From assembly GCA_039797095.1 (NCBI GenBank), contig JBDKIN010000202.1, forward strand, positions 2,729 through 66,728: a DNA stretch of 64,000 nt, written 5' to 3'. Source of the DNA: Verrucomicrobiota bacterium. GTDB lineage: Bacteria > Verrucomicrobiota > Verrucomicrobiia > Opitutales > UBA953. The notes beneath the pieces were generated by a model. That model was not told the origin of the DNA. It saw only the letters and a list, made by a program, of their open reading frames with translations, and made no database searches. The translations under genes were made by a program, and so were the position numbers. This document shows positions 20,694 to 52,455 of this stretch, piece by piece (position 1 is the first letter of the stretch; every line of letters begins with the position of its first letter).

Positions 20694-21209
20694 TCACTTG
20701 TCGGCCCCGTAGTCGCCTTTCTCGCAGCGGCGGACGAACGTCTCGGCGCGCTTGCGCAGTCCGTTCCACTTGGTGCGGAGGGCCTGCGTCTCGTCCGGCG
20801 TCACGCGTCGGTCGGCGATGGCGTCGGCCACGTCGGCGATGAGCAGGCCGAATTCGCGGACGAGCGTGTTGGCCGCCTGGTCGAGGGCGCCGGCGGCGGG
20901 TTCGGTCTCGACCGGCGTGAACTGCCCGCCGGCTTTCTCCGCCAGCCAGTCGAGGATGCGCGTGTCGCCGGTGAGCACGATGAGCTGGGCTGTGCGGTGG
21001 AGCGGGTTGGGCTGGCCGCTGCCTTGATCCGCCGGCTCGCGCCATTTGTACAGCATCGACGGCGAGACCCCGAGGGACTTCGCGACCTGTCCGTGGACCT
21101 GGGCCTGGTCGCCCGGTCGGCCTTCGCCGGCCTTACGCAAGGCGTCTTCTAGGACGTGGTGGGCTTCCTTGATCCGGCTACGGCGGGGGGCGGCGGGTTT
21201 CTTGGGCAT
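20694..21209 (-). CDS. Helix-turn-helix DNA-binding protein, weak resemblance to phage CII(CP76)-type regulators
   Basis: Start at internal ATG 21209 (MPKKPAAP). HTH-like VAKSLGVSPSMLYKWREP. The C-terminal helical region is not recognised. Confidence 0.4.
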   Translation of the reverse strand: MPKKPAAPRRSRIKEAHHVLEDALRKAGEGRPGDQAQVHGQVAKSLGVSPSMLYKWREPADQGSGQPNPLHRTAQLIVLTGDTRILDWLAEKAGGQFTPVETEPAAGALDQAANTLVREFGLLIADVADAIADRRVTPDETQALRTKWNGLRKRAETFVRRCEKGDYGADK

Positions 21210-21338
21210 GGGGCAGGCTAGGGCGGGCGGGTGCGGTTCCGCAAGCGAGACAGGGGGCCTTATAACCACGCCCCGTCTTTGTAGTCAGGGGTTTCGGAAA
21301 AGATTGGAAAGGCCGCCCGGCCGCGGCATCGTCACGGC

Positions 21339-25704: not shown

Positions 25705-25755
25705 GCAAAAAACGATGCTTCAGGCTTAGGGTTTAGACGCAAGATTTTTGCATTA

Positions 25756-25765
25756 AACAATTGTT
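25756..25765. promoter_or_regulatory. AT-rich perfect palindrome AACAATTGTT flanked by two TTTTTGCAT direct repeats (25745-25753, 25779-25787)
   Basis: Read directly. Lies in the 122-bp divergent region between the metal-uptake operon (start 25704, minus) and the pilus-like operon (start 25827, plus). Confidence 0.4.
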
Positions 25766-25826
25766 CCCGATGTGCCTGTTTTTGCATTTGCCTCCCGCAT
25801 CGGCGAAAGACACATTGCCCCTTCCC

Positions 25827-26549
25827 ATGCCCCAAGTACGTGCTGTTTTTGCCAGCCTAATGGCGTTCTGCTTGCCCGTAGCCGGTCTCCTCGCCCAGGC
25901 GGGAAAGGCCGATGCCAACGCGGGCAAAAGCGCCGTCAACGTGCGTTCGGTCCACTTCGATCCGGTCAAACTCGGCGGTCAGCAGAATCCTTGGATCCGG
26001 ACGCAGGTCGAACTCCACGCGAATTTCAATCCGGATGCCAAGGCCGCTCCGGAGGCTGAAGCCGGCCCGAAGAAGCCCGTCAATAAGGGCTGGGTGGACA
26101 AGGTGAAGGTGACCCTGACCCTCATCTTCAAGCCGATCGGCACCACGACCGCCGAGGAGTTCGCTTATTATCGTTCCTCCGCGACGGTGCTGACCATGGA
26201 GGTGAACACCGATCGCTCCGTTTATTTCTACCTGCCGGGCGATATCATCAAGCGCGACCGCCTGAAGATGCAGCCCGACTACTACTACGTCCAAGTGGAG
26301 GTCGCCGGCAGCGAACAGCCTCTCTTCTCCGAGAACGGTCGCCCGGTCGCGGACATGGGCAATGCTTTGCACAAGTTTTTCCTCGATAAGAAGAACTTCG
26401 ACCTAGCCCGCCCCCAGGCTGACCGTGCCGTCTCCGCCACTTCCGGCATGCTTCGCCCCCATTACCTCGTCCCCGCCGCTTTCTACGACAGCCTGCCCCA
26501 AGGTTCGCCGCAGCCGGAATTCATCCGGGAAGACTCCGGGTCGCGCTAA
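25827..26549 (+). CDS. Pilus-like system protein, first gene of cluster (Amuc_1102-position), secreted
   Basis: Internal ATG 25827 gives signal peptide MPQVRAVFASLMAFCLPVAGLLAQAG. Assigned by position in the conserved five-gene arrangement. Confidence 0.55.
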   Translation: MPQVRAVFASLMAFCLPVAGLLAQAGKADANAGKSAVNVRSVHFDPVKLGGQQNPWIRTQVELHANFNPDAKAAPEAEAGPKKPVNKGWVDKVKVTLTLIFKPIGTTTAEEFAYYRSSATVLTMEVNTDRSVYFYLPGDIIKRDRLKMQPDYYYVQVEVAGSEQPLFSENGRPVADMGNALHKFFLDKKNFDLARPQADRAVSATSGMLRPHYLVPAAFYDSLPQGSPQPEFIREDSGSR

Positions 26550-26570
26550 TCCCTCCCCACTCTTTCCCGT

Positions 26571-28274
26571 ATGAGCCAGAAGAAGGCCACCATCGTCAAT
26601 CTCGCCGCGTCTAACGTCTCGGTCTCGCAGTTCTCCGCCGCCGCCGGCACGCTCGTCCTCGAGCAGTTCTACGTCGAAGAGATCGCCCCCGGCCTGACCG
26701 GCGACGAAGAGTGGTTGAACGCGGCTATCGCCGCGCTCGCCAACCTGGTCAACCAGCACGGACTCAAGGGCCGCGTCACCGTCATCGCCCCGGCTTTCCT
26801 GCTCCTCCAGAAGCCGCTCAAGGTCGCGCAGGTCGAGAAGGCCAAGCAGGCTCAGATCGTCGCCTTCGAGGCCCAGAACGCCATCCCCTATCCGCTCAAC
26901 GAAGTCATCTGGGACAGCCAGCTCATGGCTTCCGACGGCGTCGAAGCCGAAGTCCTGCTCTTCGCCCTGCGTACCGAAGTCGCCACGCGTATCGCGAACT
27001 TGGTGACGTCGACCGGCCTCCGGCCCATGTCGATCCAGGCGGCGCCTCTCCTCGACAGCCAGGCCTTCCGCCTCGGCGGCGGTTCGGCCGCCGAAGAAGT
27101 CCTCATCGTCAACGTCGGCGCCCGCTCCACCACGCTCAGCTTCGTCGGTCCGAGCGGCGTCAACATCCAGACCGCCACGAACATGGGCGGCAACCTGCTC
27201 ACGCAGGGCATCTCGGATAACACCGGCCAGCCTTTCGCCACCTCCGAGGCCATCAAGGTAGGTTACTTCTCCGGCGTCCTCCAGCTCGCCGAGTCCGACC
27301 CGCAGGTCGCCGTCCTGCAGGCCAACGCGCAGACCTTCATCCGTCGCCTGGCGCAGGACATCAATCGCCGCCTCATCAACGTCCGCCGCGGCGCCAACGG
27401 CCGTCAGCCGGCCCGCATCCTCATCACCGGCCGCGGTTCGCAGGTCCCCGGCCTCGCCGAACAGCTCTGCGAGACCCTCCGTCTCGGCGTCGAGCCTTTC
27501 GATCCTTCTTCCGTCATCACCCCGGGCGAAGGCATCACCGCCGACCAGCTCCAGCGCGCGAAGCATCAGATCACCGAGGTCATCGGCGAGGCCGCCCGCC
27601 TCGTGCTGCCTCAGCCCAGCGGCGTCAACCTCATCCCGCGCGACATCGCCGCCCAGCAGGCCTTCGACGCCCGCAAGCCGCGCCTGCTCGCCGCCGCCGC
27701 GCTCGCCGCCGCCGCTCCTTTCTGCGTCTGGCTGGCCCTTGCTTCCTCCGAAGGCTGGAACAAGCAGCAGATCGACGAAGTCCAGAAGCGCCAGACCGAG
27801 CTCGCCGGCCGCCGCTCCTCCATCGAAGAATCCCGGAAGCAGGCCGCTGACCTCGCCGCCAAGTGCAAGGAACTCGAGCACGTCATCCTCAACCGTTCCA
27901 ACTGGCCGGCCTTCCTCGGCGACCTCCAGGCCCGCGTCGGGACCTGCAAGAACACCTGGATCGAGGACCTCCACGTGAAGTATGAGACGCTCCCGTCGGC
28001 TCCGGCCACGGACGGGCAGCCGCCGGCTCCCCCTGTCGTCGTCACCAAGGTCGTCCTTTCCGTCCGCTTCCTGTTCACCGAGGTGCCGCTCGATGAGAAG
28101 CGTTATCGCTCCGCCCCCGAGAAGGTGCACATCTCCCGGCTGGTCGAGGCCCTGCGCAAGTCGCCTTACGTGACCAATATCCCCGAGAACGAGATCAGCG
28201 TCACGGACCAGAACACCATCCGGACCCCGAAGGCCACCCTCTCCCTCGTCATCCAAAAGGAAAAGGCCCTCTAA
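26571..28274 (+). CDS. PilM-like actin-fold ATPase fused to a TM helix and PilN/PilO-like periplasmic coiled-coil domain (Amuc_1101-type)
   Basis: N-terminal approx 340 aa resemble PilM/FtsA (VNLAASNVSV..., IVNVGARSTTLSF, ILITGRGSQVPGL). TM helix LLAAAALAAAAPFCVWLALA, followed by a coiled coil. Confidence 0.75.
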   Translation: MSQKKATIVNLAASNVSVSQFSAAAGTLVLEQFYVEEIAPGLTGDEEWLNAAIAALANLVNQHGLKGRVTVIAPAFLLLQKPLKVAQVEKAKQAQIVAFEAQNAIPYPLNEVIWDSQLMASDGVEAEVLLFALRTEVATRIANLVTSTGLRPMSIQAAPLLDSQAFRLGGGSAAEEVLIVNVGARSTTLSFVGPSGVNIQTATNMGGNLLTQGISDNTGQPFATSEAIKVGYFSGVLQLAESDPQVAVLQANAQTFIRRLAQDINRRLINVRRGANGRQPARILITGRGSQVPGLAEQLCETLRLGVEPFDPSSVITPGEGITADQLQRAKHQITEVIGEAARLVLPQPSGVNLIPRDIAAQQAFDARKPRLLAAAALAAAAPFCVWLALASSEGWNKQQIDEVQKRQTELAGRRSSIEESRKQAADLAAKCKELEHVILNRSNWPAFLGDLQARVGTCKNTWIEDLHVKYETLPSAPATDGQPPAPPVVVTKVVLSVRFLFTEVPLDEKRYRSAPEKVHISRLVEALRKSPYVTNIPENEISVTDQNTIRTPKATLSLVIQKEKAL

Positions 28275-28278
28275 GACC

Positions 28279-29385
28279 ATGAACGCTTTCAAGAAGAATC
28301 TTGGTTTCAACCTCGGACTCATCGTCCTCGGCGGGGCTTTCCTCGCCGGGCTCGTCATGGCTTACCTCGCTTACAGCGGTGGCGTCGAGACCTCCGAGTC
28401 CCTGCGTCGCAGCACCAACATCGAGGCGGCCCTCTTGGGCGGCCACTCCTTCGGTCCCGGCGAACCGGCGGTTTCCCTCAACGACGACAACGTCAAGGCC
28501 GCCCAGGCCGACGTCGCCGAGCTCACCAAGCACCGTGACAACCTCCGGGCCGCGATCGCGGGCAATCCTGACCTGGCCATTTCCGGCCGGCCGACCGCCA
28601 ATGGCACCGAGCTCAGCGCCTTGCTGCGCGAGTCGGTCGACGGCTGGCGCAAGCAGGCGGCCGACCAAGGCGTGAAGCTGGCGCCCAACGAGCCGACCAC
28701 CTTCGGCTTCCACCGCTATTACCAGAATCCCGGCACCGGACCTAAGCGCGATTTCCAGAAGGTCGACCAGCAGCGCCAGATCATCGATTTCCTCGTCCGT
28801 CAGCTCATCGAATCCCGTCCGGCCAGCTCGCCGCTGCTGATCGAGTCCGTCGACCGCGAACCCATCGAGACGTTCGTCCTCATCCCGGAAGGCCGCCCTG
28901 GCGCCGGCACCTATGGTCCGGACAGCGAAGTCACCCGCAACGAAGTCGATGAGTTCAAGCCGGTCCGCACCCTCGCCCGCCCGGGCCTCGTCGATGCCCT
29001 GTCGTTCCGCGTCCGCTTCGTCGGACACACCGCGACCCTGCGCACCTTCGTCAACAAGATCCGCAACTCCGGCCGTCCGGTCGCGGTGACTTCCATCGAC
29101 GTCGGTACCACGACCCCGGAGTTCGAGAAACTCATGGGTGCTCCCGCCGTGGCCGCCCCGGCCGCCGCTGCCGCCCCGGCCGCCGCCGGCGCCGCGACGC
29201 TCTCGTTCTTCGAACAGGCTCCCGCCGCTGCGGCCACTCCGGCCGCCGCCACCACCGCCTCTCCGGATGAGCGCCGTGTCACGGTCGTCCAGCGTAAGCT
29301 CTCGGCTTTCGTGGTCCAGATCGACTACCTCTCGCTCCCCGAGGAGAAGGCTCCCGCCGGCACCGAAGGCGAACCCAAGAAATAA
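28279..29385 (+). CDS. Amuc_1100-family pilus-like protein
   Basis: N-terminal TM helix, central domain, Ala/Pro-rich linker, C-terminal beta segment (VVQRKLSAFVVQIDYLSLPEEK). Same layout as my recollection of Akkermansia Amuc_1100. Confidence 0.7.
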   Translation: MNAFKKNLGFNLGLIVLGGAFLAGLVMAYLAYSGGVETSESLRRSTNIEAALLGGHSFGPGEPAVSLNDDNVKAAQADVAELTKHRDNLRAAIAGNPDLAISGRPTANGTELSALLRESVDGWRKQAADQGVKLAPNEPTTFGFHRYYQNPGTGPKRDFQKVDQQRQIIDFLVRQLIESRPASSPLLIESVDREPIETFVLIPEGRPGAGTYGPDSEVTRNEVDEFKPVRTLARPGLVDALSFRVRFVGHTATLRTFVNKIRNSGRPVAVTSIDVGTTTPEFEKLMGAPAVAAPAAAAAPAAAGAATLSFFEQAPAAAATPAAATTASPDERRVTVVQRKLSAFVVQIDYLSLPEEKAPAGTEGEPKK

Positions 29386-29397
29386 AGCACTCCGGTC

Positions 29398-30330
29398 ATG
29401 AATTCCCGCAAGGACATCCTTCTCGTCTCCCTCGGCGCGCTCTTGTTCGCCGCCGGTCTCGCCGTCTACCTCAATCCGGGACTGATCGCTCCGCCCGTGC
29501 CCGACGAGGACGGCAAGACCGCCATCCTCAACAATCTCCGCCAGGCTCCGCCCGCCGGAGGCGCCTACGCCGGCACCCCTCGCGCTTCGCTCGAAGATAA
29601 CGTCAAGGACTGGCTGAGCCCCGAAGAAGACGAAGACAACTGGGACTACGATCTTTTCACCGCCATCGACGTGGCCTGGGATCCTGCGACCAAGGAATAC
29701 GTCCCGCGCAGCCGCAAGGCGGACGTCCTGCCGCCGTTCGGCGTGGAACTCGTCTCCGTCGGCTACCCCACTTACACCTTCATGCTCAGTTCCTCCTCGC
29801 TGCCGCCGAGCCGCAAGGAAGAAGACCGTCTCTTCTCCCTGAAGAACGTTAAGACCAACCGTTACCTCGACGACTGTAAGTTGAATACCCCGATCCCCGA
29901 CGCCCCTTATCTTACCCTGAAGTCCTACCGGGTCGAGAAGGGCAAAGACGCCGACGGGTTCCCTTACGTCCGCAACATCCTGACGGTCGATGACCGGCAA
30001 TTTGGACAGATCGTCGAAATCGACGACGAGAAGCCCCTCGAGTTCAAGAAACGCGTCGACATCATCCTTCGCTCCACCGACGACCCCTCCTGGGCCCAGA
30101 ACCTCCATCAGGTTGGGGATAAGTTTGAGCTCAACGGAGCCACCTTCGTGGTCAAAGGCATTGACTTGCCGACCAAGAGCGTGACTTTTGAGAAGACCAT
30201 CGTCCTCAACCCCAAGAGGCCCAGTAAGAAGACTTTCGACCAGCAGACGCTGGTCGTCCCGGCGCCCCCGCCCCCCGTCCCTAAGACCAAGCCCGCCGCC
30301 CCTGCGTCGAGCGCTCCCACCACCAAATAA
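29398..30330 (+). CDS. Pilus-like system protein (Amuc_1099-position), bitopic
   Basis: N-terminal TM helix LLVSLGALLFAAGLAVYL and Pro-rich C-terminal tail. Assigned by position between the Amuc_1100-like gene and the secretin. Confidence 0.55.
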   Translation: MNSRKDILLVSLGALLFAAGLAVYLNPGLIAPPVPDEDGKTAILNNLRQAPPAGGAYAGTPRASLEDNVKDWLSPEEDEDNWDYDLFTAIDVAWDPATKEYVPRSRKADVLPPFGVELVSVGYPTYTFMLSSSSLPPSRKEEDRLFSLKNVKTNRYLDDCKLNTPIPDAPYLTLKSYRVEKGKDADGFPYVRNILTVDDRQFGQIVEIDDEKPLEFKKRVDIILRSTDDPSWAQNLHQVGDKFELNGATFVVKGIDLPTKSVTFEKTIVLNPKRPSKKTFDQQTLVVPAPPPPVPKTKPAAPASSAPTTK

Positions 30331-30349
30331 TTTTCAAAGCCCCCCACTC

Positions 30350-33337
30350 ATGAAAAAAATCCACCGTTCGCAGCTCGCTTGGGCCGCTTTCGCACTCGCG
30401 CTCGCCGCTGGCTCGCTCGTCGCCCAAGATGGCGATGCTTCCGCGCGCAAGCCGATGCTGCTCGCCGAGGCTCTCAAGGCTCGCGATGAAGGCAACCTCC
30501 AGACCGCCAAGGAGAAGTTCGAGGCGATCCTCGCGATCGACCCCAAGGACATGGGGGCCAACGAAGGCCTGACCTCCGTCAACGCGGCCCTCGCCGAGGC
30601 CGCCGCCGCCAAGCAGGCCGCCGACGCCAAGGCCGCCGCTCCGACGGCCGCCGCTCCGGCCCCCGCCGTTGCTCCGGCCGCGCCCAGCGCGCTCGACGAA
30701 GTCGCGACCGCCCACCAGAACCGATTCGACGAAGTCACCCGTGCCATCGATGCCGCCAAGGCCAAGATCGCCGCGGGCGACCTCAAGCGCGCCCAGGAAA
30801 TCCTCGACGGTGCCAGCGGCGCCCTCGCCACGATTCCGACCGCCGCCGCCCAGAAGCTCCGCGACGCCATCTCCCTCGCCAAGCAGGACCTCGCCGTACG
30901 TCGCGATGCCGGCGGTGCTTCCGCCGCCCAGGACGAGGTCAAGCGCCTCGCCAAGGAAAACTCCGCCTCCCTCGCCAAGCAGGACGATGCCATCGACGCG
31001 GCTGAAAAGCTGCTCCGCAAGGGCACCGCAGATTCCGTCGACAAGGCCATCTCCGACCTCGATGCGGCCGACCGCGCCCTCGGCGCCGAAAGCCTTTCCA
31101 ACAAGGATCTCAAGGAGCGCATCAAGGCGACCAAGGGCTCGGCCCTCGCCCGTCGCGCCCTCATCGCGATCGAAGCCCGCGACATGAATCGCGCCACCAC
31201 CCTTGTCGCCGAATACGCCAAGCTCAAGGGCGAGGAAGATCCGGCCGTCCTACGTCTCCAGAAGGAGCTCGCCGCCAAGCGCGATAATCCGACTTACCGC
31301 AACATCGACGAACTCTCCCCGGGCGTCCGTAACAAGGACGAAAAGGTCAACGAGCTGCTCGTCAAGGGCCGCGCCCGCTACCTCTACGGCGACTACCAGG
31401 GAGCCCTCGACGCCTACCGCGAAGTCCTCCAGTACCAGCCCAACAACTCCGAATCCAAGGCCTATCAGGTCCGCATCCGCCAGATGTTGTCCGAGAACTC
31501 CGGCCAGTGGAACCGCGGGGTGACCAAGGGCAAGCTGCTCGAGCTCCTCGATGAGACCTGGAAGCTCCCCGAAGTCTTCAACCGCGAGAACACCAAGACC
31601 GACCTCGGCAACGGCAATGACCCGGTGACCGAGAAGATGAAGACGATCCGTCTGCCCGAAGGCTTCATCGCCCGCGACGAACCGCTGGACCGCGCGCTCA
31701 CCAAGCTCTCGAGCCTCTCGCAGACCTACGACAAGGACCAGAAGGGCGTGAACATCGTGCCCGTCACCGACGGCGGCGAAAGCCCCACCGTCAACCTGCA
31801 GCTCCGCGACGTCACGGTCTTCCAGGCCCTCGACTACCTCTGCAAGCGCGTCGGCTACAGTTTCTCCGTCAGCCCCTCGGGTATCGTCGAAGTCCGCAAG
31901 GACGCCGGCGACAGCCTGCTCGACACCCAGTTCTTCGAACTGACCCAGGCCGCCGTCGTCAAGATGACCGGTCAGGGCCTCAACACCACCGCTCCCGGCG
32001 GCGGCGCCACCAATCCCTTCGGCGGCGCCACCGGCGCGGCTGGTCCGACCGACGGCAACCCGCAGGAAATGGCGATCAAGAGCTTCCTCATCCGCTCGGG
32101 CGTCCCGTTCGAGCCGCCGGCGACCCTCTCGTTCGACGGCACCCGTCTCATCGTCACGGGCAGCCCGAAGAACCTGGACCGCGTGAAGAACATCATCCGT
32201 CGCTACTCCGACATCAAGCAGGTCCACATCGAAGCCAAGTTCATCGAAGTCGAGCAGAAGGCGCTCAACGAACTCGGCGTCAACTGGTCGCTGACGCCCA
32301 CGGTCGAGGGTAACGGTGGCGTCACCGCCGGCACCAACCTGCGCTCGATCAACCGTGTGTTCGCGCAGAATAACACGGCTCCGAAGAACCTCACCATCAA
32401 CAGTCAGATCACGACCCAAGCGGGCGTCACCACCAACACCACCCAGACCTTCCCCAATGTCGCCCCGACCTTCCCGGGAGGCATGAATCTGGGCAGCATC
32501 GCGAACACCTACAGCGGCACCGTCAATATCCTCAGCCGCGAGACCCTCGCCCTGACCATCCGCGCGATCGAAGAAAGCGCCGGCAGCGACCTGATGTCGT
32601 CCCCGAGCCTGACCGTCCTCGACGGCAAGACGGCCGTCATCAAGGTGGCCCAGCTGCTCCGTTATCCGCAAGCCTACGGCGACATCCAGTCCAACGTCGG
32701 TAACGGCGGCGGCGGCGGCGGCGCCCAGTTCGGCGCAGCCAACACTTCCGTCGCGATCACGGCCGGTACCCCGCAGGACTTCACCGTCCAGGAAGTCGGC
32801 GTGACCCTCGAAGTCACCCCGACCGTCGCGGCCGATGACTCCATCGCCCTCAACCTCAAGCCGAAGGTGACCGAGTTCGAAGGTTTCGTGGAATACGGCG
32901 GCACCTCCGTCGCCTTGACCGGCGGCGTGACCGTCACCGTGCCTTCCGGCTTCTTCCAGCCGATCTTCAGCACCCGCGAAGTCACGACCGACGTCACCGT
33001 CTTCGACGGCGCCACCGTCGTCATCGGCGGTTTGACCCGCGAAGAAGTGAAGACCATCGACGACAAGGTCCCGGTCCTCGGTTCGCTGCCCCTCATCGGC
33101 GCCGCTTTCCGTTCGAGCGGCAAGAGTGTCTCCAAGCGGAGCCTCATGGTGTTCGTCACCGCGAACCTCGTCTCGCCGGGTGGCGCCACCCTGCGCAGCT
33201 CCCATCCGGGCATGCGCGCCGGGGCGACCTTCTCGAACCCCACGCTCATCTCCCCGGGCGGCGCCGTCTACCGCGAGCCGATCGAAGCCGCCACGCCGAC
33301 CGAGCCCGCGCCGGTCGCCACCGAGCCGGCCAAGTAA
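30350..33337 (+). CDS. Secretin (GspD/PilQ family; Amuc_1098-type outer-membrane channel) with approx 480-aa N-terminal helical/TPR-like extension
   Basis: Start at internal ATG 30350 gives signal peptide MKKIHRSQLAWAAFALALAAGSLVAQ. N0-like VFQALDYLCKRVGYSF and secretin core KQVHIEAKFIEV...VPVLGSLPLIGAAFRS...MVFVTANLV. Confidence 0.88.
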   Translation: MKKIHRSQLAWAAFALALAAGSLVAQDGDASARKPMLLAEALKARDEGNLQTAKEKFEAILAIDPKDMGANEGLTSVNAALAEAAAAKQAADAKAAAPTAAAPAPAVAPAAPSALDEVATAHQNRFDEVTRAIDAAKAKIAAGDLKRAQEILDGASGALATIPTAAAQKLRDAISLAKQDLAVRRDAGGASAAQDEVKRLAKENSASLAKQDDAIDAAEKLLRKGTADSVDKAISDLDAADRALGAESLSNKDLKERIKATKGSALARRALIAIEARDMNRATTLVAEYAKLKGEEDPAVLRLQKELAAKRDNPTYRNIDELSPGVRNKDEKVNELLVKGRARYLYGDYQGALDAYREVLQYQPNNSESKAYQVRIRQMLSENSGQWNRGVTKGKLLELLDETWKLPEVFNRENTKTDLGNGNDPVTEKMKTIRLPEGFIARDEPLDRALTKLSSLSQTYDKDQKGVNIVPVTDGGESPTVNLQLRDVTVFQALDYLCKRVGYSFSVSPSGIVEVRKDAGDSLLDTQFFELTQAAVVKMTGQGLNTTAPGGGATNPFGGATGAAGPTDGNPQEMAIKSFLIRSGVPFEPPATLSFDGTRLIVTGSPKNLDRVKNIIRRYSDIKQVHIEAKFIEVEQKALNELGVNWSLTPTVEGNGGVTAGTNLRSINRVFAQNNTAPKNLTINSQITTQAGVTTNTTQTFPNVAPTFPGGMNLGSIANTYSGTVNILSRETLALTIRAIEESAGSDLMSSPSLTVLDGKTAVIKVAQLLRYPQAYGDIQSNVGNGGGGGGAQFGAANTSVAITAGTPQDFTVQEVGVTLEVTPTVAADDSIALNLKPKVTEFEGFVEYGGTSVALTGGVTVTVPSGFFQPIFSTREVTTDVTVFDGATVVIGGLTREEVKTIDDKVPVLGSLPLIGAAFRSSGKSVSKRSLMVFVTANLVSPGGATLRSSHPGMRAGATFSNPTLISPGGAVYREPIEAATPTEPAPVATEPAK

Positions 33338-33361
33338 GCCAGGCAGCGATGCCCGGTCCGA

Positions 33362-33392
33362 CAGGCCCGCCGTTCGGCGGGCCTGCTTTTTT
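33362..33392 (+). terminator. Rho-independent terminator after the secretin gene
   Basis: CAGGCCCGCC-GTTC-GGCGGGCCTG followed by TTTTTT. Confidence 0.85.
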
Positions 33393-33428
33393 CTCGATGC
33401 GTTCCGCCGGCGGAGCGACACTGGTCGC

Positions 33429-34457: not shown

Positions 34458-35303
34458 TTAGTTCTTCTTCTCGGCCTTCTTCTCGAGCTTCGGCGCTTCG
34501 ACGGCGGCGGGGGCCGCGGCGGCCTGCTGCTGGGCGTTGGCGATGAGGCCCTGGACCTGGTTCACTTCTTCCTGATTGAGCAGGATGACGAACTTCGACT
34601 CGAGGACTTCGACTTCGTAATTATGGGTGATCGAATAGCCGACGCTGTCGGCCATCTCCTTGTTGCCCTTGTTGAGGAGCTCCAAGGTCTGGTCGAGCTG
34701 GGTCTGGATGCGGGTCTTGTCCTCTTCCTTCTCGGCGCGCTTCAGGAGCTCGGTGAGCTGGATGACGGCGTCGCGTCGGGCCTGGAGGACCTTGGCGAAC
34801 TGGTCGAACTGGATGACGAGGTCGAGGCCGCGGATCTCGGCGGTCTGCAGGAGGCGACGGTCGCCGCGGACGACGAGCTGCTCTTCCTTGAAGTTCTTAT
34901 CGGCCTTGGCCTTGGCGGCTTCTTCTTCCGAGACGACGGCGAAGAGGCGGAGGGCGGTGTTGATGAAGGTCGCCTGGCGATTGGCCACGGCCGAGACGCT
35001 GAAGCCCCAGACCTTGACGAAGATGCCGTCCTTCTCGTTGAAGTCCTTCGCTTCGGCTTCGGCGACCTTGATCAGCGCGTCGCGCTCGACGGTGGTCAGC
35101 GCGACCTGGATGCGCTGCTGGAGCTGCTGGATGCGGCCGAGGTGCTGGCCGAGGGTCTGGAGTTCCTGCTGGAAGCGGGCGAGGGATCCCTGGTTGGAGA
35201 TCGTCAGGACGACGCGGGCCAGGTTCTGGCCGAGCGGGATGAGCTCGATGACCGGGCCCTTCGGGGTTTCGGCGGGAGCGGCGGGGGTTTCGGTGGCGGA
35301 CAT
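34458..35303 (-). CDS. Hypothetical coiled-coil protein, paralog A (no signal peptide)
   Basis: Aligns along most of its length with the adjacent upstream gene (FQxxxQxLGQ, ALTTxE, GFS, EExAK, KxFK). Lys-rich C-terminus. Confidence 0.6.
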   Translation of the reverse strand: MSATETPAAPAETPKGPVIELIPLGQNLARVVLTISNQGSLARFQQELQTLGQHLGRIQQLQQRIQVALTTVERDALIKVAEAEAKDFNEKDGIFVKVWGFSVSAVANRQATFINTALRLFAVVSEEEAAKAKADKNFKEEQLVVRGDRRLLQTAEIRGLDLVIQFDQFAKVLQARRDAVIQLTELLKRAEKEEDKTRIQTQLDQTLELLNKGNKEMADSVGYSITHNYEVEVLESKFVILLNQEEVNQVQGLIANAQQQAAAAPAAVEAPKLEKKAEKKN

Positions 35304-35336: not shown

Positions 35337-36170
35337 TTACTTCTTCTCGGCGGCCGTCGGGGCCTTGGCTTCGATGGCCTTCTTCTCTTCCTCGGTGATC
35401 TGGATGGAGAGACGGGCTTCGGAGGGCAGGGTGATGGCTTCGGCGTTGAAGTCGAAACCGCGGGCCTTCTTGAACTCTTCGAGGCTCTGGGAGAGGTCGT
35501 CCTGGATTTCCTTGATGGCCTTCTCGACCTTCTTCTTGTCGTCGTCCTTGGTCAGCTTGGGCTGGAGGTCGATGAGCTGCTGGAGCTGGGCCTTGGCGTC
35601 GGTGATGCGCTTGAGGGCGAGGCCGAAGGTCTCGACTTCGACCTGACCGGAGACGGTGTCGCGGATCTGGAACTTCTTCTCGCCGGTGGAGATGATGGTG
35701 TCCGGCTTGAAGTCCTTGGCGGCCGAGATCTTGGCGAATTCTTCGTTGGAGATCGGGGTGGCGATCACGGCCTTGGTCGCGACGAACTGGTAGGGGCGCT
35801 CGATGCTGAAGCCGTTATAGAGCTTGGTCATCGACTCGTTGTCGCCCTTGAGCTTGGCGGTCTTGGCCGCGATGTCGTGGCCGCGGGCTTCCTTCTCGGG
35901 GGTGGTGAGGGCGTTATCGAGGAAGATCTGCAGGCGCTTAAGCTCTTCGACCTGCTGGCCCAGGACCTGGATGTTCTTCTGGAAGTTGAGGCACTCGGCG
36001 ATGTTCTTGCCGACCCAGACTTCGGCGAAGTAAGCCTTCGGCTCGGACTTGGCGCCACCGGAGAGCTTGACCTCAGGGGCCGGCGCGGCGGCCTTGGTGT
36101 CGGCCGGCTTCGCTTCCTGAGCATTCAGGGAGACGCAGAGAGCAGCCAGGAGGAGCGAGAACTTGTTCAT
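35337..36170 (-). CDS. Hypothetical coiled-coil protein, paralog B (signal peptide)
   Basis: Internal ATG 36170 gives MNKFSLLLAALCVSLNAQEA. Paralogous to 34458..35303. Confidence 0.6.
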   Translation of the reverse strand: MNKFSLLLAALCVSLNAQEAKPADTKAAAPAPEVKLSGGAKSEPKAYFAEVWVGKNIAECLNFQKNIQVLGQQVEELKRLQIFLDNALTTPEKEARGHDIAAKTAKLKGDNESMTKLYNGFSIERPYQFVATKAVIATPISNEEFAKISAAKDFKPDTIISTGEKKFQIRDTVSGQVEVETFGLALKRITDAKAQLQQLIDLQPKLTKDDDKKKVEKAIKEIQDDLSQSLEEFKKARGFDFNAEAITLPSEARLSIQITEEEKKAIEAKAPTAAEKK

Positions 36171-36238
36171 GGGAGTGGGGAGGGAGGTTCGAACATAGGC
36201 AAAGCCTAGGCATGGACTACCAAAAAATCGTCTGGACC

Positions 36239-37057
36239 TCACTTTTTCGGAGGCAGGAGGGCCCGATCGATCACTTTGGTCAGGTCCACCCTTTCGGCTT
36301 CCTTTTGGAGGACCTCGTCCGCCAGCACCGCCCGGACCTTTGGATGGTCAATAAAACCACTTAAGTCATTATTGTTCAACAACTCACGAACTTTTTTATC
36401 TTCCCAGGCCTGGTAAAGAGTGGGGTGGGCGGCTAGGGCCCGGATTTCGGGTTGAGCCATCAGACGTCGGCGTGCTTCGGGCTCGGCCATGAGCTGGCGG
36501 GTCTGCCGAATCAGGGTCCGTTGCTCGTCGGGGATGGGCGACCAGTCTTTGAGGTCTCGGGTCAGGGGCGTCGCGGCGAGCTCGTCGCGCACGGCGACCG
36601 TCCAGTGGCTGGCCGGGGCCCCGGGGCGGGCGAGCAGATCGTAGACCGAAGCGACTGCGGCGATGATGCCGACCAGCAGCAGGAAGTAGAGGGTGCCCGT
36701 CCAACAGCCGACGAGGGCTCCGAGCACGGGGTTCTCGGCTTCGTCCTGGCCCTCGGGGGTCCGTCCCAGGCGCCAGAGCAAGGCATAGCTGAGCAGGCCG
36801 GTCATGCAGGCGAGGCCCACCACGCCGGTGATGCCGCGGAGCATCCAAGGGTAGGAGGTGCCTTGCAGCAGGGCGTGGCCGAGTTCGCCGCCGAAGAGCC
36901 AGCCGCTGAGCTGTCCGATGGTGAGGGCCGCGGGGCCGGCGAGCTGGCGGAGCGGTCCGCGACGATAGCCGCGCCAGGCTCCCCGGATCATGAGCGCGGC
37001 GAGGATCCCGGTCGCGATCCAGAGCGTCGGCGAGAAGGCGGCGAGTTCGGTCGGCAT
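36239..37057 (-). CDS. CvpA-family membrane protein with C-terminal soluble domain
   Basis: Four TM helices with a CvpA-like N-terminus (IATGILAALMIRGAWRGYRRGPLRQL). ATGA-type overlap with the upstream kinase gene. Confidence 0.6.
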   Translation of the reverse strand: MPTELAAFSPTLWIATGILAALMIRGAWRGYRRGPLRQLAGPAALTIGQLSGWLFGGELGHALLQGTSYPWMLRGITGVVGLACMTGLLSYALLWRLGRTPEGQDEAENPVLGALVGCWTGTLYFLLLVGIIAAVASVYDLLARPGAPASHWTVAVRDELAATPLTRDLKDWSPIPDEQRTLIRQTRQLMAEPEARRRLMAQPEIRALAAHPTLYQAWEDKKVRELLNNNDLSGFIDHPKVRAVLADEVLQKEAERVDLTKVIDRALLPPKK

Positions 37058-39421: not shown

Positions 39422-39499
39422 GAGGGGGTAGCTCAGTTGGATCAGAGCAGCAGCCTTCTAAGCTGCGGGTCGCGGGTTCGAGTCCCGCCCTCCTCACCA
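39422..39499 (+). tRNA. tRNA-Arg (anticodon TCT)
   Basis: Manual cloverleaf: acceptor GAGGGGG/CCTCCTC (one GU pair), D arm GCTC-AGTTGGATCA-GAGC, anticodon arm GCAGC-CTTCTAA-GCTGC. T arm GCGGG-TTCGAGT-CCCGC, encoded CCA. Confidence 0.9.
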
Positions 39500-39511
39500 C
39501 TTTTCGCCGTC

Positions 39512-40354
39512 ATGTCCGCCGCCCCTTACCATCTCGCGGATCGCGAGGTCGGCGTCGGCGTCCTGAGCGCACTGGAAGTCGAAGCGGGTCTAGCCACCGG
39601 GCGCCTCTCCGCGGCGACCCTCTCTTGGCGCGAAGGCGAGGCCGCCTGGATGCCGCTGGGCGCGCGTCCGGAATTCGCGTCCGCGGTCGGGGCCTTCCGC
39701 ACGCTCGTGCCTCCGCCGGCGCTCGCTTTCGACGCATCATCCGAGCCGTGGCCAGGTTGGGTGGCTTGGGCGCAGACCATGCGTGCGATTTGGCGCGCGC
39801 CGCGCAGCGTTTTCCGACCTACGACGGAAACTGCCGGCCTAGGGCGATCCGTCGAGTGGTTGGCCATCTCCGCATTCCTGGTCGCCCCGTTCCTTTACGC
39901 GCAGCTGGCTTACACGGGCGGAGTGGCGTCAGAAATCCTCCTCTGGTCGGCCTCGGATAATCCCGTTGTTCCGCCCACTCGGCTGGACCTCGGACGCTTC
40001 GCCGCGTTCCTCGTGGGATTCCCTCTCGTCATGCCCGCCGCGGCCTTCGGAGGCGCGTGCCTCATGCATGCCGTGCTCGTCATGTTCGGCGGAGGCAAGG
40101 CAGGCCTGCGCGTGACCTTCCGCCTCGTGGCCTACGTCGGAGGCGCGATGCTGATGCCGGCGATCGTCCCATGCGGCTGGTTGCTCTCGCCTTTGCTGAC
40201 CGTCGCCTACTTGTCGGTGGCTCTGCCGACGGCCCACCGCGAATCCGCTTGGAAACCCATCCTGGCCTTGGCGGTCGCGGGCTTCGGCGCTGGCTGCGTG
40301 GCCGTGGCCTTCATGGCCCTGGCGATCTGGCCCTTCTTCCGGCCGATGGGCTGA
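39512..40354 (+). CDS. GYF_2 (DUF4339)-like N-terminal domain + Yip1-like multi-pass membrane protein, paralog 1
   Basis: Internal ATG 39512, 13 nt after tRNA-Arg. N-terminus ...LSWREGEAAWMPLGARPEF matches the GYF_2 pattern. About 5 TM helices. Confidence 0.6.
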   Translation: MSAAPYHLADREVGVGVLSALEVEAGLATGRLSAATLSWREGEAAWMPLGARPEFASAVGAFRTLVPPPALAFDASSEPWPGWVAWAQTMRAIWRAPRSVFRPTTETAGLGRSVEWLAISAFLVAPFLYAQLAYTGGVASEILLWSASDNPVVPPTRLDLGRFAAFLVGFPLVMPAAAFGGACLMHAVLVMFGGGKAGLRVTFRLVAYVGGAMLMPAIVPCGWLLSPLLTVAYLSVALPTAHRESAWKPILALAVAGFGAGCVAVAFMALAIWPFFRPMG

Positions 40355-40400
40355 GCGGGGCTAGGCTTGCGAGGGAGGTCGCTCCGCCTATCAAAGACCT

Positions 40401-40571
40401 ATGCAGATTCACGTCGCCCGTCACCAACAGCAGCTCGGGGTCTTCGCCGCCGCGGACATCCTCGCCGGCTTGTCTTCCGGCCGCTTCCTTCCCTCCGACC
40501 TCGCCTGGCGCGAGGGCATGGCCGTGTGGACGCCCCTCGGCGACTGGGCCGAGTTCCGCGGCGCCGGCGTA
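40401..40571 (+). repeat. Approx 171-nt direct repeat copy 1 (second copy 41256..41426), the GYF-domain-coding 5' ends of paralogs 2 and 3
   Basis: Nucleotide-level similarity is visible by eye across the first 57 codons of both genes. Confidence 0.75.
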
Positions 40572-41249
40572 CCGCCTTCTCCTTCCGGTCTTGCGCAGCC
40601 TGCGGACGCCCCTGCCATGCCGTCCTGGGAGCGTGGTGCCTCGTTGGGCAACTTCATCGCGACCATCAAGGAGGTCGCCCTCGATCCGGTACGGACCTTC
40701 GCGAACCTGCGCGACGGTGGCTACGCCCGCCCGATCTCCTTTACCTATTGGTCGCTGCTGCCGGCCTGGCTCTGCGGCAGCCTGCTCTACGGCGCGCTCT
40801 TCGGCTTCATGGCGACGGTGGGCGCCGCCGCTTTGCCCCGCGCCGACGATCCTTTTTCGACTTGGATCGCCGGCGTCGGTCCGCTCGTGGCCGCCTTGGC
40901 GATCTCCGCTTTCCTGGGCGTATTCTTCCTTTTCGTGCCTCTCTTCAATTTCGTCGGCGCCGGCATCACCTACCTGCTGCTGCTGCCTTGGGGTCCCTCC
41001 GGCGGCTACGCGCAGACCTATCGCGCCAATGCTTACGCCTATGGGGCGTTCATGCCCTTCGCCTTCATCCCTTGCCTCAATTACGTCGCCATGCCGTGGC
41101 AGCTGGTGGCGGCCATCATCGCCCATTCGCAGGTCCACCGGATCGCTTGGTGGAAGGTCACGATCTCGCTCGTCGTGATCCCTTGCCTTTGCGTCTGCGG
41201 AATCTATGCGATGTTGTTCGCGGTCGTCGCCAAGAACTTCGCGGGCTGA
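40401..41249 (+). CDS. GYF_2 (DUF4339)-like + Yip1-like membrane protein, paralog 2
   Basis: MQIHVARHQQQLGVF...LAWREGMAVWTPLGDWAEFRGAG, followed by a multi-pass membrane domain. Confidence 0.65.
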   Translation: MQIHVARHQQQLGVFAAADILAGLSSGRFLPSDLAWREGMAVWTPLGDWAEFRGAGVPPSPSGLAQPADAPAMPSWERGASLGNFIATIKEVALDPVRTFANLRDGGYARPISFTYWSLLPAWLCGSLLYGALFGFMATVGAAALPRADDPFSTWIAGVGPLVAALAISAFLGVFFLFVPLFNFVGAGITYLLLLPWGPSGGYAQTYRANAYAYGAFMPFAFIPCLNYVAMPWQLVAAIIAHSQVHRIAWWKVTISLVVIPCLCVCGIYAMLFAVVAKNFAG

Positions 41250-41255
41250 TTTTCC

Positions 41256-42140
41256 ATGCAGATCCACGTCGCCCGCAATTCCGCCCAGCTCGGAGTCTTC
41301 TCCTCGGAAGAGGTCGGCGCCGGCCTCTCCTCCGGCCGCTTCCTCGCCTCCGACCTCGCTTGGCGCGACGGCATGGCCGCATGGACGCCGCTCGGCGACT
41401 GGCCGGAGTTCCGCGGTGCGGGCGTGACGTCTTCGCCGGGAGAGATTTCCGCGCCTGCGTCGGCCGCTTCGCCGATCCCTTGGGAGCAGGGCAAATCCCT
41501 GGGAGCTTTCTTCGCGACGATCAAGCATGTGGTCTCAAGCCCGTCTTCGCTCGCCTCCGGCCGATTCGCCTTCGGGGATTGGCTGACCTTCTGCTACGTC
41601 GGCATCCTGTTTTCCTTGCCGTTCCAGTTGTTCGCCCTGCTGGCCTACGGCGACAAGAACGTCCAGGTCGGCCAGTTCCTCGAGCGCCTGAATATCCCGG
41701 GGCTGAACGAGGTCGCCCAGCAGATGATCCAAGCTCCGCCCGCGCCGGTCGCCTTCACGCTCATCGGCGCGGTCATCGGCCTCGCCTTCGCGCCGCTCAT
41801 CTACGCTTTCATGGGCGTCCTCCATTGGCTGGGTCAGCGTGTCTTCCGCTATCAGGTGCCGCTCGAGCGGACGGTGGCCATCTCCCTGCTGACGACTGCC
41901 GCGGTCGTCGTGCTGACGGCCCCGCTCCAGTTCCTCGGCTTCAGCCTCGTCACGCAGATGAGCGTCACCTTCGTGACCTTCGTGCCTGTGTGCGTGATCT
42001 ATTTCCGCGCCCTCGGCGCCGCCACGGGCATCAATCCATGGGCCCAGTTCGGCATCTCCTGCTTCGTGTGGTCCGTGGTGTGCGGTTGTTGCTGCTTCCT
42101 TCCGGGCATCCTTCTCTGGGCTGCGGCGGTCACGCGCTGA
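41256..42140 (+). CDS. GYF_2 (DUF4339)-like + Yip1-like membrane protein, paralog 3
   Basis: MQIHVARNSAQLGVF...LAWRDGMAAWTPLGDWPEFRGAG, then a multi-pass membrane domain and a Cys-rich C-terminus (CGCCCF). Confidence 0.65.
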   Translation: MQIHVARNSAQLGVFSSEEVGAGLSSGRFLASDLAWRDGMAAWTPLGDWPEFRGAGVTSSPGEISAPASAASPIPWEQGKSLGAFFATIKHVVSSPSSLASGRFAFGDWLTFCYVGILFSLPFQLFALLAYGDKNVQVGQFLERLNIPGLNEVAQQMIQAPPAPVAFTLIGAVIGLAFAPLIYAFMGVLHWLGQRVFRYQVPLERTVAISLLTTAAVVVLTAPLQFLGFSLVTQMSVTFVTFVPVCVIYFRALGAATGINPWAQFGISCFVWSVVCGCCCFLPGILLWAAAVTR

Positions 42141-49106: not shown

Positions 49107-50938
49107 CTCCCGGCTTCGGTCAGCAGCGGAGCAAGGAGGGCGGCGAGCGTCGGTTCCAGGATGAAGTCGTCATCATCCGTCTCGTCGCGCAGGAGCAGCG
49201 AACGGTCGTTGAGCGGGGCGGAACAGAGGTAGGTCCGGATCGTCTCGCTCGCGGCGCCGGCGCCGGTCGCCGCTTGGTCCGTCACCCGCAGTTCGTAGCT
49301 CCAGCCGCCGGCGCCGACGTCGCGTCCGGGGAAGGCGGTCGCGCGGACTTCGGCGAGCCCCAGGGCGAGCCGGCGCGCGCTGGTCGGATCGAGCCGCCCG
49401 GTGCCGGCCCAGTTGCCGTCCGGCCCGAGGCGGGCCTCGCCGACCACTTTGCCGTCGGCGCGCGCGGTGAGGCGTAGTCCGCTGACACGCGCGCCTTGCG
49501 GCAGGGCGGCCACGGTGCGGCGACGCCACGCGGAGGGTTCGACGTTCTGGTGTCCGCCGTCGAGGAACGTGACGTCACAGGTCGCCGCCAGCGGCGAACC
49601 TTTGGCGTGGACGAGGCGGGTGCCCGCCCCGTTGTCGGGATCGTCGGTGAAGCCGAGTACGATGCGTTCCGCTCCGAATTCGAGTTCGACGGTCTGGCCC
49701 GTCGCGCCGGCGAGCGGCTCGCGGACGGCGGGCAAGGTCAGTCCGCCGTCGACGGCGGGCGCGCGGCGCGTGGCCCGCAGCTGGGAGAGTCCGGCGAGGA
49801 AGCGACCCACGAGCCGCGCATCGGCTTCGCGGCGCTTGGTGGCCGTGGAGCCGGGCGCGACCGGAATCTCCCAGCGCGCGTCTTCGCCGAGTCCGTCGAG
49901 CCGGTGCAGCGTGATGCTGCGGCCGCCGGCGGAGACCGTGAAGCCCGTCACGAGAGACGGATCGAAATCGGCGGGCCGCGTGTCGGCGAGCGTCGCGCGC
50001 GGAGCCATCCATTCCCGCAGCTCGCGCGCCTCGATCAGGAAGACGGCGGCGTTGTCTTCCAGCTTCGCGCAGAGGAGTTGCGGCTGGCCCGGCGCGGGGC
50101 GGCCGACGAGCAGCATCTGACGGCGGGCGTTGCCTTCGAGCGCCAGGCGCAGGGCGGGTGCGCCCAGGCCGGTCGCTTCTTCGGGGAGGTCGGCGAACTT
50201 GGCGACGCGCAGGTTGGCGAGCGCGGTCACGGCGCGGGCGGTGGCGTCGGGATCGGCCGGGGCGTCGTAAGGGGCTTCGAAGCGCCACTCGGGCAGCTGC
50301 ACGCGTCGGCCGACGCGCGGGCGTGCTTCGGCGACGAGCGCCGTGACGGTCTCGACGTCCTTCTCGCGCTGCCGCACCGAGACCGCACGGGCCTCGAAGT
50401 CGGCGATCTCGAAGATACGGTCGACCCGGTAGCTCTCGGCGCTCACGCCCAAGGCCGCGGCCATCGCGTCCGGGAGCGGCACGATGCGCCGGCCGTCTTC
50501 GGTGAGCAGGAAGTGCCGGCGGGTCGAGGGTTGGACGCCGACCTTGACCTCGACGGCGGCGCCGGCGTCACCGGTGACCTTCACGGTCCAGCGCGCCGGA
50601 TCGAGGCCGTAGTCCTTGAGGCTGGCGCCGTTGGCCGTCACCTCGGCGACGTCGAAGCCGCTTTCCGGACTGATGAAGCGGAGTTCGTCGATCAGTCGCT
50701 GCACGGACCAGACGTTGGCCGGCCACTCGAACGGTTCGAGCACGCGCCAACCGGCCGGTCTTTTCTCCAAAAGGACCCGGGTCGGGCCTTCGGCGAGGGC
50801 GATGCGCGCCGGGTTGGCGGGGAAGAGCTGGGTCTGACTGACCGCGGCCGTGGTCTGTCCGGACATGGCGCGCCACACGAGACCGAAGGCGATCAGGTTG
50901 GCGAGCAGGAGGACGACGGTGGTGCGGGAGATCCGCAT
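49103..50938 (-). CDS. DUF4340 domain-containing protein
   Basis: Internal ATG 50938 (MRISRTTVVLLLANLIAFGLV). Position directly after a GldG-like gene is the usual DUF4340 context. Confidence 0.6.
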   Translation of the reverse strand: MRISRTTVVLLLANLIAFGLVWRAMSGQTTAAVSQTQLFPANPARIALAEGPTRVLLEKRPAGWRVLEPFEWPANVWSVQRLIDELRFISPESGFDVAEVTANGASLKDYGLDPARWTVKVTGDAGAAVEVKVGVQPSTRRHFLLTEDGRRIVPLPDAMAAALGVSAESYRVDRIFEIADFEARAVSVRQREKDVETVTALVAEARPRVGRRVQLPEWRFEAPYDAPADPDATARAVTALANLRVAKFADLPEEATGLGAPALRLALEGNARRQMLLVGRPAPGQPQLLCAKLEDNAAVFLIEARELREWMAPRATLADTRPADFDPSLVTGFTVSAGGRSITLHRLDGLGEDARWEIPVAPGSTATKRREADARLVGRFLAGLSQLRATRRAPAVDGGLTLPAVREPLAGATGQTVELEFGAERIVLGFTDDPDNGAGTRLVHAKGSPLAATCDVTFLDGGHQNVEPSAWRRRTVAALPQGARVSGLRLTARADGKVVGEARLGPDGNWAGTGRLDPTSARRLALGLAEVRATAFPGRDVGAGGWSYELRVTDQAATGAGAASETIRTYLCSAPLNDRSLLLRDETDDDDFILEPTLAALLAPLLTEAGR

Positions 50939-50945
50939 GGGCACG

Positions 50946-52454: not shown

Positions 52455-52455
52455 G

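Follow-up and report, generated by a model that had tools for sequence, protein, structure and literature searches.

The window analyzed here is a 64-kb stretch of contig JBDKIN010000202.1 (assembly GCA_039797095.1) from a Verrucomicrobiota bacterium. Positions 25827-33392 of this window hold a five-gene operon (g1 to g5) that is, with near certainty, the Opitutales ortholog of the verrucomicrobial Amuc_1102-1098/MUL2 module. It encodes an alignment subcomplex of the pilMNOPQ type and a secretin, together with one extra secreted protein. We consider it probable (roughly 0.6) that this assembly is the scaffold of a type IV filament machine, with pilins and ATPases encoded in trans, that would serve in the capture or uptake of polymers (glycans).

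Organization of the operon

The operon consists of five open reading frames (ORFs), all on the + strand between 25827 and 33337 and separated by gaps of 21, 4, 12 and 19 bp. Its features are listed below, with membrane topology taken from a Kyte-Doolittle hydropathy scan.

25705-25826, intergenic region between the divergent znuA (- strand) and g1, presumed promoter of the operon
25827-26549, + strand, g1, 240 aa, signal-peptide protein
26571-28274, + strand, g2, 567 aa, PilM-PilN fusion of the Amuc_1101 superfamily
28279-29385, + strand, g3, 368 aa, bitopic protein of the Amuc_1100 superfamily in the PilO position
29398-30330, + strand, g4, 310 aa, bitopic protein, positional counterpart of Amuc_1099 in the PilP/GspC position
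30350-33337, + strand, g5, 995 aa, outer-membrane secretin with tetratricopeptide repeats (TPR), Amuc_1098 superfamily
33362-33395, + strand, intrinsic terminator, with the hairpin at 33362-33385 followed by CTTTTTTCTC

Because the gaps are short and a single terminator closes the array, the five genes form one operon. The terminator lies 3' of g5 and is the only strong one on the + strand in this region; its 10-bp stem, in which 9 pairs are G-C, encloses a 4-nt loop (GTTC) and is followed by the T-run CTTTTTTCTC. The promoter is presumed to lie in the rather A+T-rich region 25705-25826; a scan of the + strand did not find a sigma-70 consensus. Upstream, the operon is flanked by the divergent znuA-znuC-znuB operon, and downstream by a gene for a 5'-3' exonuclease.

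An initial annotation, made from the DNA alone, had described five closely spaced, co-directional genes ending in a strong terminator and encoding a secreted protein, a PilM-like protein with a PilN/O-like part, two bitopic proteins and a 995-aa secretin, in an organism with an Opitutales-like gene repertoire. The coordinates and the terminator scan bear out the layout, the hydropathy and Pfam analyses bear out the protein types, and the host is indeed a member of the Opitutales.

Conservation of the operon and the reference loci

Scanning genomes with aligned g2 sequences recovered 293 relatives, of which the best 80 (50-100% g2 identity) were analyzed. Judged by record titles and shared synteny, these best 80 of 293 are freshwater metagenome-assembled genomes (MAGs) of the Opitutales/Opitutia, and one of them encodes a g2 that is 100% identical to that of the window. 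Among these 80 Opitutales species representatives, every locus of sufficient length keeps the g1-g5 order, with znuA upstream and the exonuclease gene downstream. Median identity to the window is highest for g2 (65%), followed by g5 (56%), g1 and g3 (52% each) and g4 (50%). The operon is a vertically inherited core operon across the Opitutales. Assignment to a mobile or defense island was rejected, as synteny with the housekeeping flanks is conserved.

Five of the related loci carry unexpected titles. L006, L021, L066, L073 and L074 (g2 homologs with 53-98% identity) are labeled Polynucleobacter meluiroseus, uncultured Klebsiella sp., Sphingomonadaceae and uncultured Enterobacteriaceae; all except the 1.2-kb L066 show the Opitutales operon with its flanks, and these records are probably mis-binned or mislabeled MAGs.

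For comparison with the Akkermansia-type module, we used environmental 'canonical' loci, whose tested members pass the cutoffs of the Amuc_* models, along with PDB entries 7DSZ and 6KNY. When metagenomes were scanned with aligned Amuc_1101-equivalog-like proteins, 80 further (canonical) loci were obtained; a metagenome scan with one Akkermansiaceae-like representative yielded none. The 80 canonical loci share a single layout: a gene for ~190-240 aa, a PilM-like gene for ~580-620 aa, genes for ~300-360 and ~315-355 aa, and a secretin gene for ~870-990 aa. The upstream-gene family of these loci matches Amuc_1102 (7DSZ) at 2.4e-37, and canonical representatives pass the NCBIfam cutoffs for Amuc_1102_rel, Amuc_1100_fam, Amuc_1099_fam and Amuc_1098_fam.

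A natural PilM-PilN fusion

The protein encoded by g2 has these elements:

aa 1-~345, actin-like cytoplasmic PilM domain
aa 352-356 (nt 27624-27638), PilN signature VNLIP, in the context GVNLIP, directly after the PilM domain
aa 370-393 (nt 27678-27749), single transmembrane (TM) segment, ~15 residues past VNLIP

Beyond the TM segment there is a periplasmic coiled coil and an alpha/beta domain. The Pfam PilM_2 domain is matched at E 1e-18 (67.9 bits, cutoff 27), and TIGR01175 reaches 81 bits (cutoff 133). NCBIfam Amuc_1101_fam (NF045709) gives E 5.6e-77 and 260 bits, which is below the equivalog cutoff of 650; canonical Amuc_1101 representatives score 662-703 bits on the same model.

A profile of the C-terminal part (A9) was made from Opitutales and canonical Amuc_1101-family loci. 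The L and P of the xNLxP motif are invariant in this profile, which matches PilN of Myxococcus xanthus (PDB 3JC8) with E 1.8e-5, beginning at PilN residue 3 (IRINLLP). Since a PilM domain is followed by VNLIP, a TM segment and a periplasmic part matching M. xanthus PilN, g2 is a natural PilM-PilN fusion anchored in the inner membrane. The architecture is widespread, with 280 cluster representatives (50% identity) at E<=1e-30; among the representatives listed, the length is mostly 540-620 aa.

The Amuc_1100-type protein and the secretin

The N-terminal TM anchor of g3 (7-34) leads into a coiled coil and then a globular domain, which an Ala/Pro linker connects to a short beta segment at the C-terminus. 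The initial annotation had likened this architecture to that of Amuc_1100, and profile comparisons place g3 in that superfamily. NCBIfam Amuc_1100_fam (NF038287) matches at E 4e-11 (43 bits, below the cutoff of 180), and the g3 ortholog of one close relative has a match to Pfam PF28028 (Amuc_1100). The g3 family aligns with the canonical position-3 family at 99% probability (hhalign, P 5.8e-18), the canonical family in turn matches the Amuc_1100 structures 6KNY/6LAD/6LAF at 1e-42, and reciprocal hidden Markov model (HMM) matches for g3 extend down to 1e-17. A PDB search with the single g3 sequence found nothing relevant. On these family-level comparisons, the homology of g3 to Amuc_1100 can be regarded as secure.

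In the secretin encoded by g5, a typical signal peptide is followed by a long helical N-terminal region of Ala-rich/TPR character (~aa 27-440), then by N-domains and, at the C-terminus, by the secretin domain. Pfam Secretin matches aa 740-941 at E 4.9e-34 (117.8 bits, cutoff 27.5), and a TPR repeat is also detected; no AMIN domain was found in g5, the N-terminus being TPR/helical. NCBIfam Amuc_1098_fam (NF042912) aligns with residues 187-949 at E 6.8e-102 and 342 bits (cutoff 750, not reached), where one canonical locus scores 1063 bits. The general secretin models GspD, PilQ and MshL all remain under their cutoffs and rank behind Amuc_1098_fam; the best of them is GspD with 141 bits (cutoff 351), and PilQ (TIGR02515) reaches 124 bits (cutoff 284). 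Tad and type III secretion system secretins were also considered for g5 and rejected on their much lower scores.

Two diverged components

The first and fourth genes are more distant from their Akkermansia counterparts. The hydropathy scan predicts a signal peptide for g1 (MPQVRAVFASLMAFCLPVAGLLAQA, followed by G), and members of the g1 family share its N-terminus, R/K-A followed by a hydrophobic stretch. Neither Pfam nor NCBIfam gave a match to g1, and PDB searches with the single g1 sequence or with a profile of the Opitutales-only g1 family returned nothing relevant. The AlphaFold2 (AF2) model of g1 is an immunoglobulin (Ig)-like beta-sandwich with a predicted local distance difference test score (pLDDT) of 68. 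When this model was compared with 350,542 PDB chains in Foldseek, the top three hits were all three chains of 7DSZ (Amuc_1102), with E ~1e-3, probability 1.0 and TMt 0.42-0.44. An HMM of the canonical Amuc_1102 family, run against 5,807 ORFs, placed g1-position ORFs in 18 of the top 20 ranks (best E 2e-4). Direct hhalign comparison of g1 with that family gave 22-40% probability, with the alignment limited to the first conserved W-x-x-VE hairpin. With moderate confidence, based on fold, HMM rank and gene position, we take g1 to be a diverged homolog of Amuc_1102 (MUL2A). For both g1 and g4, the hypergeometric P values of the HMM hit rankings exaggerate the significance, as the members of each family are related to one another, and count as rank evidence alone.

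The g4 protein has a TM anchor (5-32), an ~80-aa disordered acidic linker, two beta-rich domains and a Pro/Lys tail; the AF2 model (pLDDT 70) likewise has the TM segment as a helix, the acidic linker disordered and beta structure in both domains. PDB searches with the single g4 sequence and with the profile of the Opitutales-only g4 family found nothing relevant, and beta-propeller matches returned by Foldseek were dismissed as meaningless. Comparison with the Amuc_1099 family by hhalign gave 70% probability (P 3.9e-5) with the large family and 1.9% (P 0.026) with a smaller alignment. The Amuc_1099-family HMM had g4-position ORFs in 11 of its top 20 ranks, all with E of at least 0.24, and always aligned HMM positions 159-270 with residues ~113-234. 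Homology between g4 and Amuc_1099 is thus plausible, with a weak and inconsistent signal, and their equivalence is mainly positional and architectural.

Canonical Amuc_1099-family proteins (position-4 genes of L085-L164, A8) contain a near-invariant EF-hand-like loop, DPDGDGFxNLDE. This loop was the sole finding when the canonical Amuc_1099 profile was searched against the PDB, through weak matches to calcium-binding proteins. The corresponding stretch of g4 reads EDEDNWDYDLFT, and the DxDxDG putative Ca-binding loop is degenerate in the Opitutales.

Comparison with the Akkermansia module

The operon and the Amuc_1102-1098 (MUL2) locus of Akkermansia muciniphila have the same five kinds of co-directional genes in the same order, encoding a secreted Ig-fold protein, a PilM-like protein of ~570-620 aa, the bitopic Amuc_1100, a second bitopic protein and a TPR-secretin. 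Both stand alone, without pilin or ATPase genes. They also differ in several respects. The operon stems from another class (Opitutia vs Verrucomicrobiia), and all five of its proteins fall under the NCBIfam equivalog cutoffs, with g1 and g4 undetected by those models. Its secretin has ~170 extra N-terminal residues relative to the Amuc_1098 type, and the DxDxDG loop of canonical Amuc_1099 is degenerate in its g4. The flanks are znuA and the 5'-3' exonuclease gene in the window, whereas in the one canonical locus tested a dephospho-CoA kinase gene lies 3' of the secretin; many other canonical loci have a ~200-aa gene at this position.

The initial annotation had called the locus Amuc_1102..1098-type. 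For g2, g3 and g5 this assignment is clear, with homology to 1101, 1100 and 1098 detectable by HMM at 5.6e-77, 4e-11 and 6.8e-102, respectively, and the gene order is the same; for g1 and g4 only remote homology was found.

In Akkermansia the gene cluster is described as pili-like and abundant in envelope fractions (PMC5332112), its secretin, which carries TPR at the N-terminus, has been noted to be conserved among other Verrucomicrobia (PMC4960237), and a PilO/PilN-like character has been ascribed to Amuc_1100 (bioRxiv 10.64898/2025.12.30.696933). The cluster corresponds to MUL2, whose importance for acquiring mucin is reported in two papers, both citing Davey 2023 (bioRxiv 10.64898/2025.12.30.696933; PMC13174399). 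On that account, the initial statement that only host signalling by Amuc_1100 is known for this system is outdated. Conservation of MUL2 extends over aquatic Akkermansiaceae and other Verrucomicrobiales and is lower in Chthoniobacterales, whereas Methylacidiphilales lack the locus, and a role in attachment and substrate concentration has been proposed (PMC13174399, 2026 ISME J). That survey does not mention the Opitutales (PMC13174399). The initial annotation had also argued for a core envelope function unrelated to the gut; this is plausible, but earlier work had reported the module outside the gut, in aquatic Akkermansiaceae, other Verrucomicrobiales and Chthoniobacterales (PMC13174399), and the idea of a role independent of the gut is already in print for neighbouring lineages. 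What is new here is the distribution in Opitutales, the explicit assignment of a PilM-PilN fusion, and the finding that two components out of the five have diverged too far for the curated family models to match them.

Pilin, motor, platform and peptidase genes

The 64-kb window lacks any class-III G-F-T-L-x-E pilin signal in its six frames, and it has no Walker A motif of the T2SSE type (GPTGSGK[ST]T). Pfam scans of the ~55 predicted genes of the whole window found no T2SSE, T2SSF, Peptidase_A24 or N_methyl domain; the remaining genes have housekeeping or unrelated functions. The initial annotation had likewise reported neither a class-III signal nor a nearby PilB/PilT ATPase, PilC platform protein or prepilin peptidase. 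Pilin signals and T2SSE Walker motifs were also absent from 164 related loci (~2.1 Mb), i.e. the module always stands alone with respect to these elements.

In model bacteria with type IVa pili (T4aP), pilMNOPQ operons are not linked to pilA, pilBCD or pilT. Because pilMNOPQ genes normally lie apart from those for pilins and motors, their absence in cis is expected and does not warrant the earlier view of a complex that lacks a known motor or fibre. The conserved cytoplasmic PilM domain is not known to have a role other than engaging PilB, PilT or PilC, and its conservation argues for a motor encoded elsewhere in the genome. Pilus components, PilT among them, are encoded in each of the four genomes of cultivated root-associated Verrucomicrobia described in one study (PMC7251102), and in Akkermansia the pilins are located elsewhere in the genome (bioRxiv 10.64898/2025.12.30.696933).

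A working model and the points against it

In the model that we favor, a scaffold for a type IV filament machine with trans-encoded pilins and ATPases, the PilM ring would dock an assembly ATPase and a platform protein encoded elsewhere, as for ordinary pilMNOPQ systems. The C-terminal part of g2, together with g3, would form a periplasmic alignment ring, which g4 would join to the secretin. The machine might then extend and retract a short fibre, or gate the secretin, such that polymeric glycans are captured and moved to or through the outer membrane. In freshwater, such glycan capture would correspond to the mucin acquisition that depends on MUL2 in Akkermansia, and g1 could be an accessory in the periplasm or at the surface, or else cargo.

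Several observations weigh against this model. The trans-encoded parts are an assumption, as the search for PilB/T, PilC, PilD and pilins covered the window and the 164 related loci and found none. The proposed function in glycan uptake is extrapolated by analogy from another class of Verrucomicrobiota and from papers citing Davey 2023. Amuc_1100 was localized at the cell surface of Akkermansia (PMC5332112), a poor fit to an inner-membrane PilO role, and hhalign comparison of the Amuc_1100 family with the PilN-like g2 C-terminal profile (5.8% probability) gave no signal of a PilN/PilO paralogy. Furthermore, Foldseek and PDB profile searches with g4 did not find a PilP or GspC match; g4 has a TM anchor in place of a lipobox; and it matched nothing in Pfam and NCBIfam, including the Amuc_1099 model NF042425 (cutoff 50 bits), even at E<=1. 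Similarly, g1 had no match at E<=0.1 to the NCBIfam Amuc_1102 model NF042424 (cutoff 55 bits).

Alternative explanations

The PilMNOPQ proteins of T4aP (Pseudomonas aeruginosa, M. xanthus, Thermus thermophilus) share with the operon the actin-like PilM domain, the INLLP-type motif, TM segment and periplasmic domain of PilN, and the order of bitopic partners followed by a secretin, without linked pilins or motors. An ordinary T4aP basal body, whose pilins and motors lie elsewhere and which serves adhesion, twitching or DNA uptake and has no special link to glycan acquisition, would account for this order (PilM, PilN, PilO position, PilP position, secretin) and for the passing of the PilM_2 and Secretin Pfam cutoffs, and it would be in line with the pilus components, PilT included, of the four root-associated genomes (PMC7251102). 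We nevertheless think it rather unlikely, since several features distinguish the operon from T4aP: PilM and PilN are fused, g1 is an extra upstream secreted gene that is always present, the secretin has TPR repeats rather than AMIN and stays under the PilQ cutoff, and g4 has a TM anchor and no detectable PilP-like fold, unlike the PilP lipoprotein with its secretin-binding beta-sandwich. In addition, the orthologous Akkermansia locus is tied to mucin acquisition, not motility.

A second alternative, that of the initial annotation, is a self-contained complex of secretin and alignment proteins with neither filament nor ATPase. It would be a large gated channel in the outer membrane, held to the inner membrane by an anchor and used, for example, for passive or proton-motive-force-linked passage of polymers. 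The want of any linked pilin or ATPase gene in the window and in the 164 loci speaks for this explanation, and g1, a secreted protein foreign to pilMNOPQ, fits it too. Against this, unlinked pilMNOPQ genes are normal for T4aP, a conserved PilM domain would be left without any known role, and the pilin and PilT genes of other Verrucomicrobia, Akkermansia among them, lie elsewhere (bioRxiv 10.64898/2025.12.30.696933; PMC7251102). We therefore regard a motor-less channel as unlikely.

A more far-reaching proposal is that the machine is an import gate, and not a pilus exporter, across the Verrucomicrobiota. A TPR-secretin opened and closed by the PilMN/Amuc_1100/Amuc_1099 scaffold would pull glycans into the periplasm, with g1 as a non-canonical fibre or plug; the secretin, which in Akkermansia is the dominant outer-membrane protein, may be very abundant, and a g1-type fibre or plug may be assembled without a class-III signal. 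The lack of a linked pilin or ATPase, the constant presence of g1 and the conservation of its N-terminus make the data compatible with this proposal, which we consider improbable.

A T2SS-like (type II secretion system) exporter of glycoside hydrolases or other exoproteins is the least credible reading: g2, g3, g4 and g5 would take the roles of GspL, GspM, GspC and GspD, with g1 a dedicated substrate or an analog of a pseudopilus tip, and in GspL, too, an actin-like cytoplasmic domain is fused to a TM segment and to a periplasmic domain of the PilN type, g4 shares the bitopic topology of GspC, GspM weakly matches residues 371-456 of g2 (E 0.019) and GspD is the best general secretin model for g5 (141 bits), but all Gsp scores lie far under their cutoffs, the cytoplasmic domain of g2 is PilM_2 and not of the GspL type, its C-terminus matches PilN in the PDB search, and genes for GspE, GspF and a pseudopilin, which usually share one operon with the other T2SS genes, are missing from the window.

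Other genes in the window

Just 3' of the operon, two adjacent - strand genes (34458-35303 and 35337-36242) encode coiled-coil paralogs with 27% identity (E 9e-12). Neither has a Pfam match, and a pair occupies the same position in one close relative (L003 15064-16770).

At 60320-61102 (- strand) there is a gene for a 260-aa protein with a Ribosomal_S10-like domain (aa 16-99, E 2e-11) and a NusB domain (aa 122-246, E 3e-32). S10 (NusE) and NusB form a heterodimer in antitermination, and the product looks like a natural NusE-like/NusB fusion; a limited literature search found no description of such a protein.

Three tandem genes at 39437-42140 (+ strand) each begin with a GYF_2 domain, to which one of the three adds a Yip1 membrane domain. 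The genes at 46389-54203 (- strand) encode an ABC ATPase, an ABC_transp_aux (GldG-like) protein, a DUF4340 protein and a 905-aa protein without a Pfam match; the G+C content of this region is raised (0.72-0.735, vs ~0.65-0.67 nearby). A Phage_CP76 (CII-like)/helix-turn-helix protein is encoded at 20694-21269 (- strand), between the genes for peptide deformylase and nfeD-floA. As a close relative has a gene in the same position (L003 1281-1796), this gene is not a recent prophage remnant.

Significance for the Verrucomicrobiota

The operon extends the range of the Amuc_1102-1098/MUL2 module from Akkermansia and the Verrucomicrobiales to a second class, represented by freshwater Opitutales. The identification of g2 as a PilM-PilN protein within a pilMNOPQ-like operon provides a concrete structural model for the module, and this distribution shows the host-signalling protein Amuc_1100 to be part of an ancient machine. 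As a core operon of the Opitutales, the module supports a general envelope function in polysaccharide-degrading bacteria, rather than one specific to the gut.

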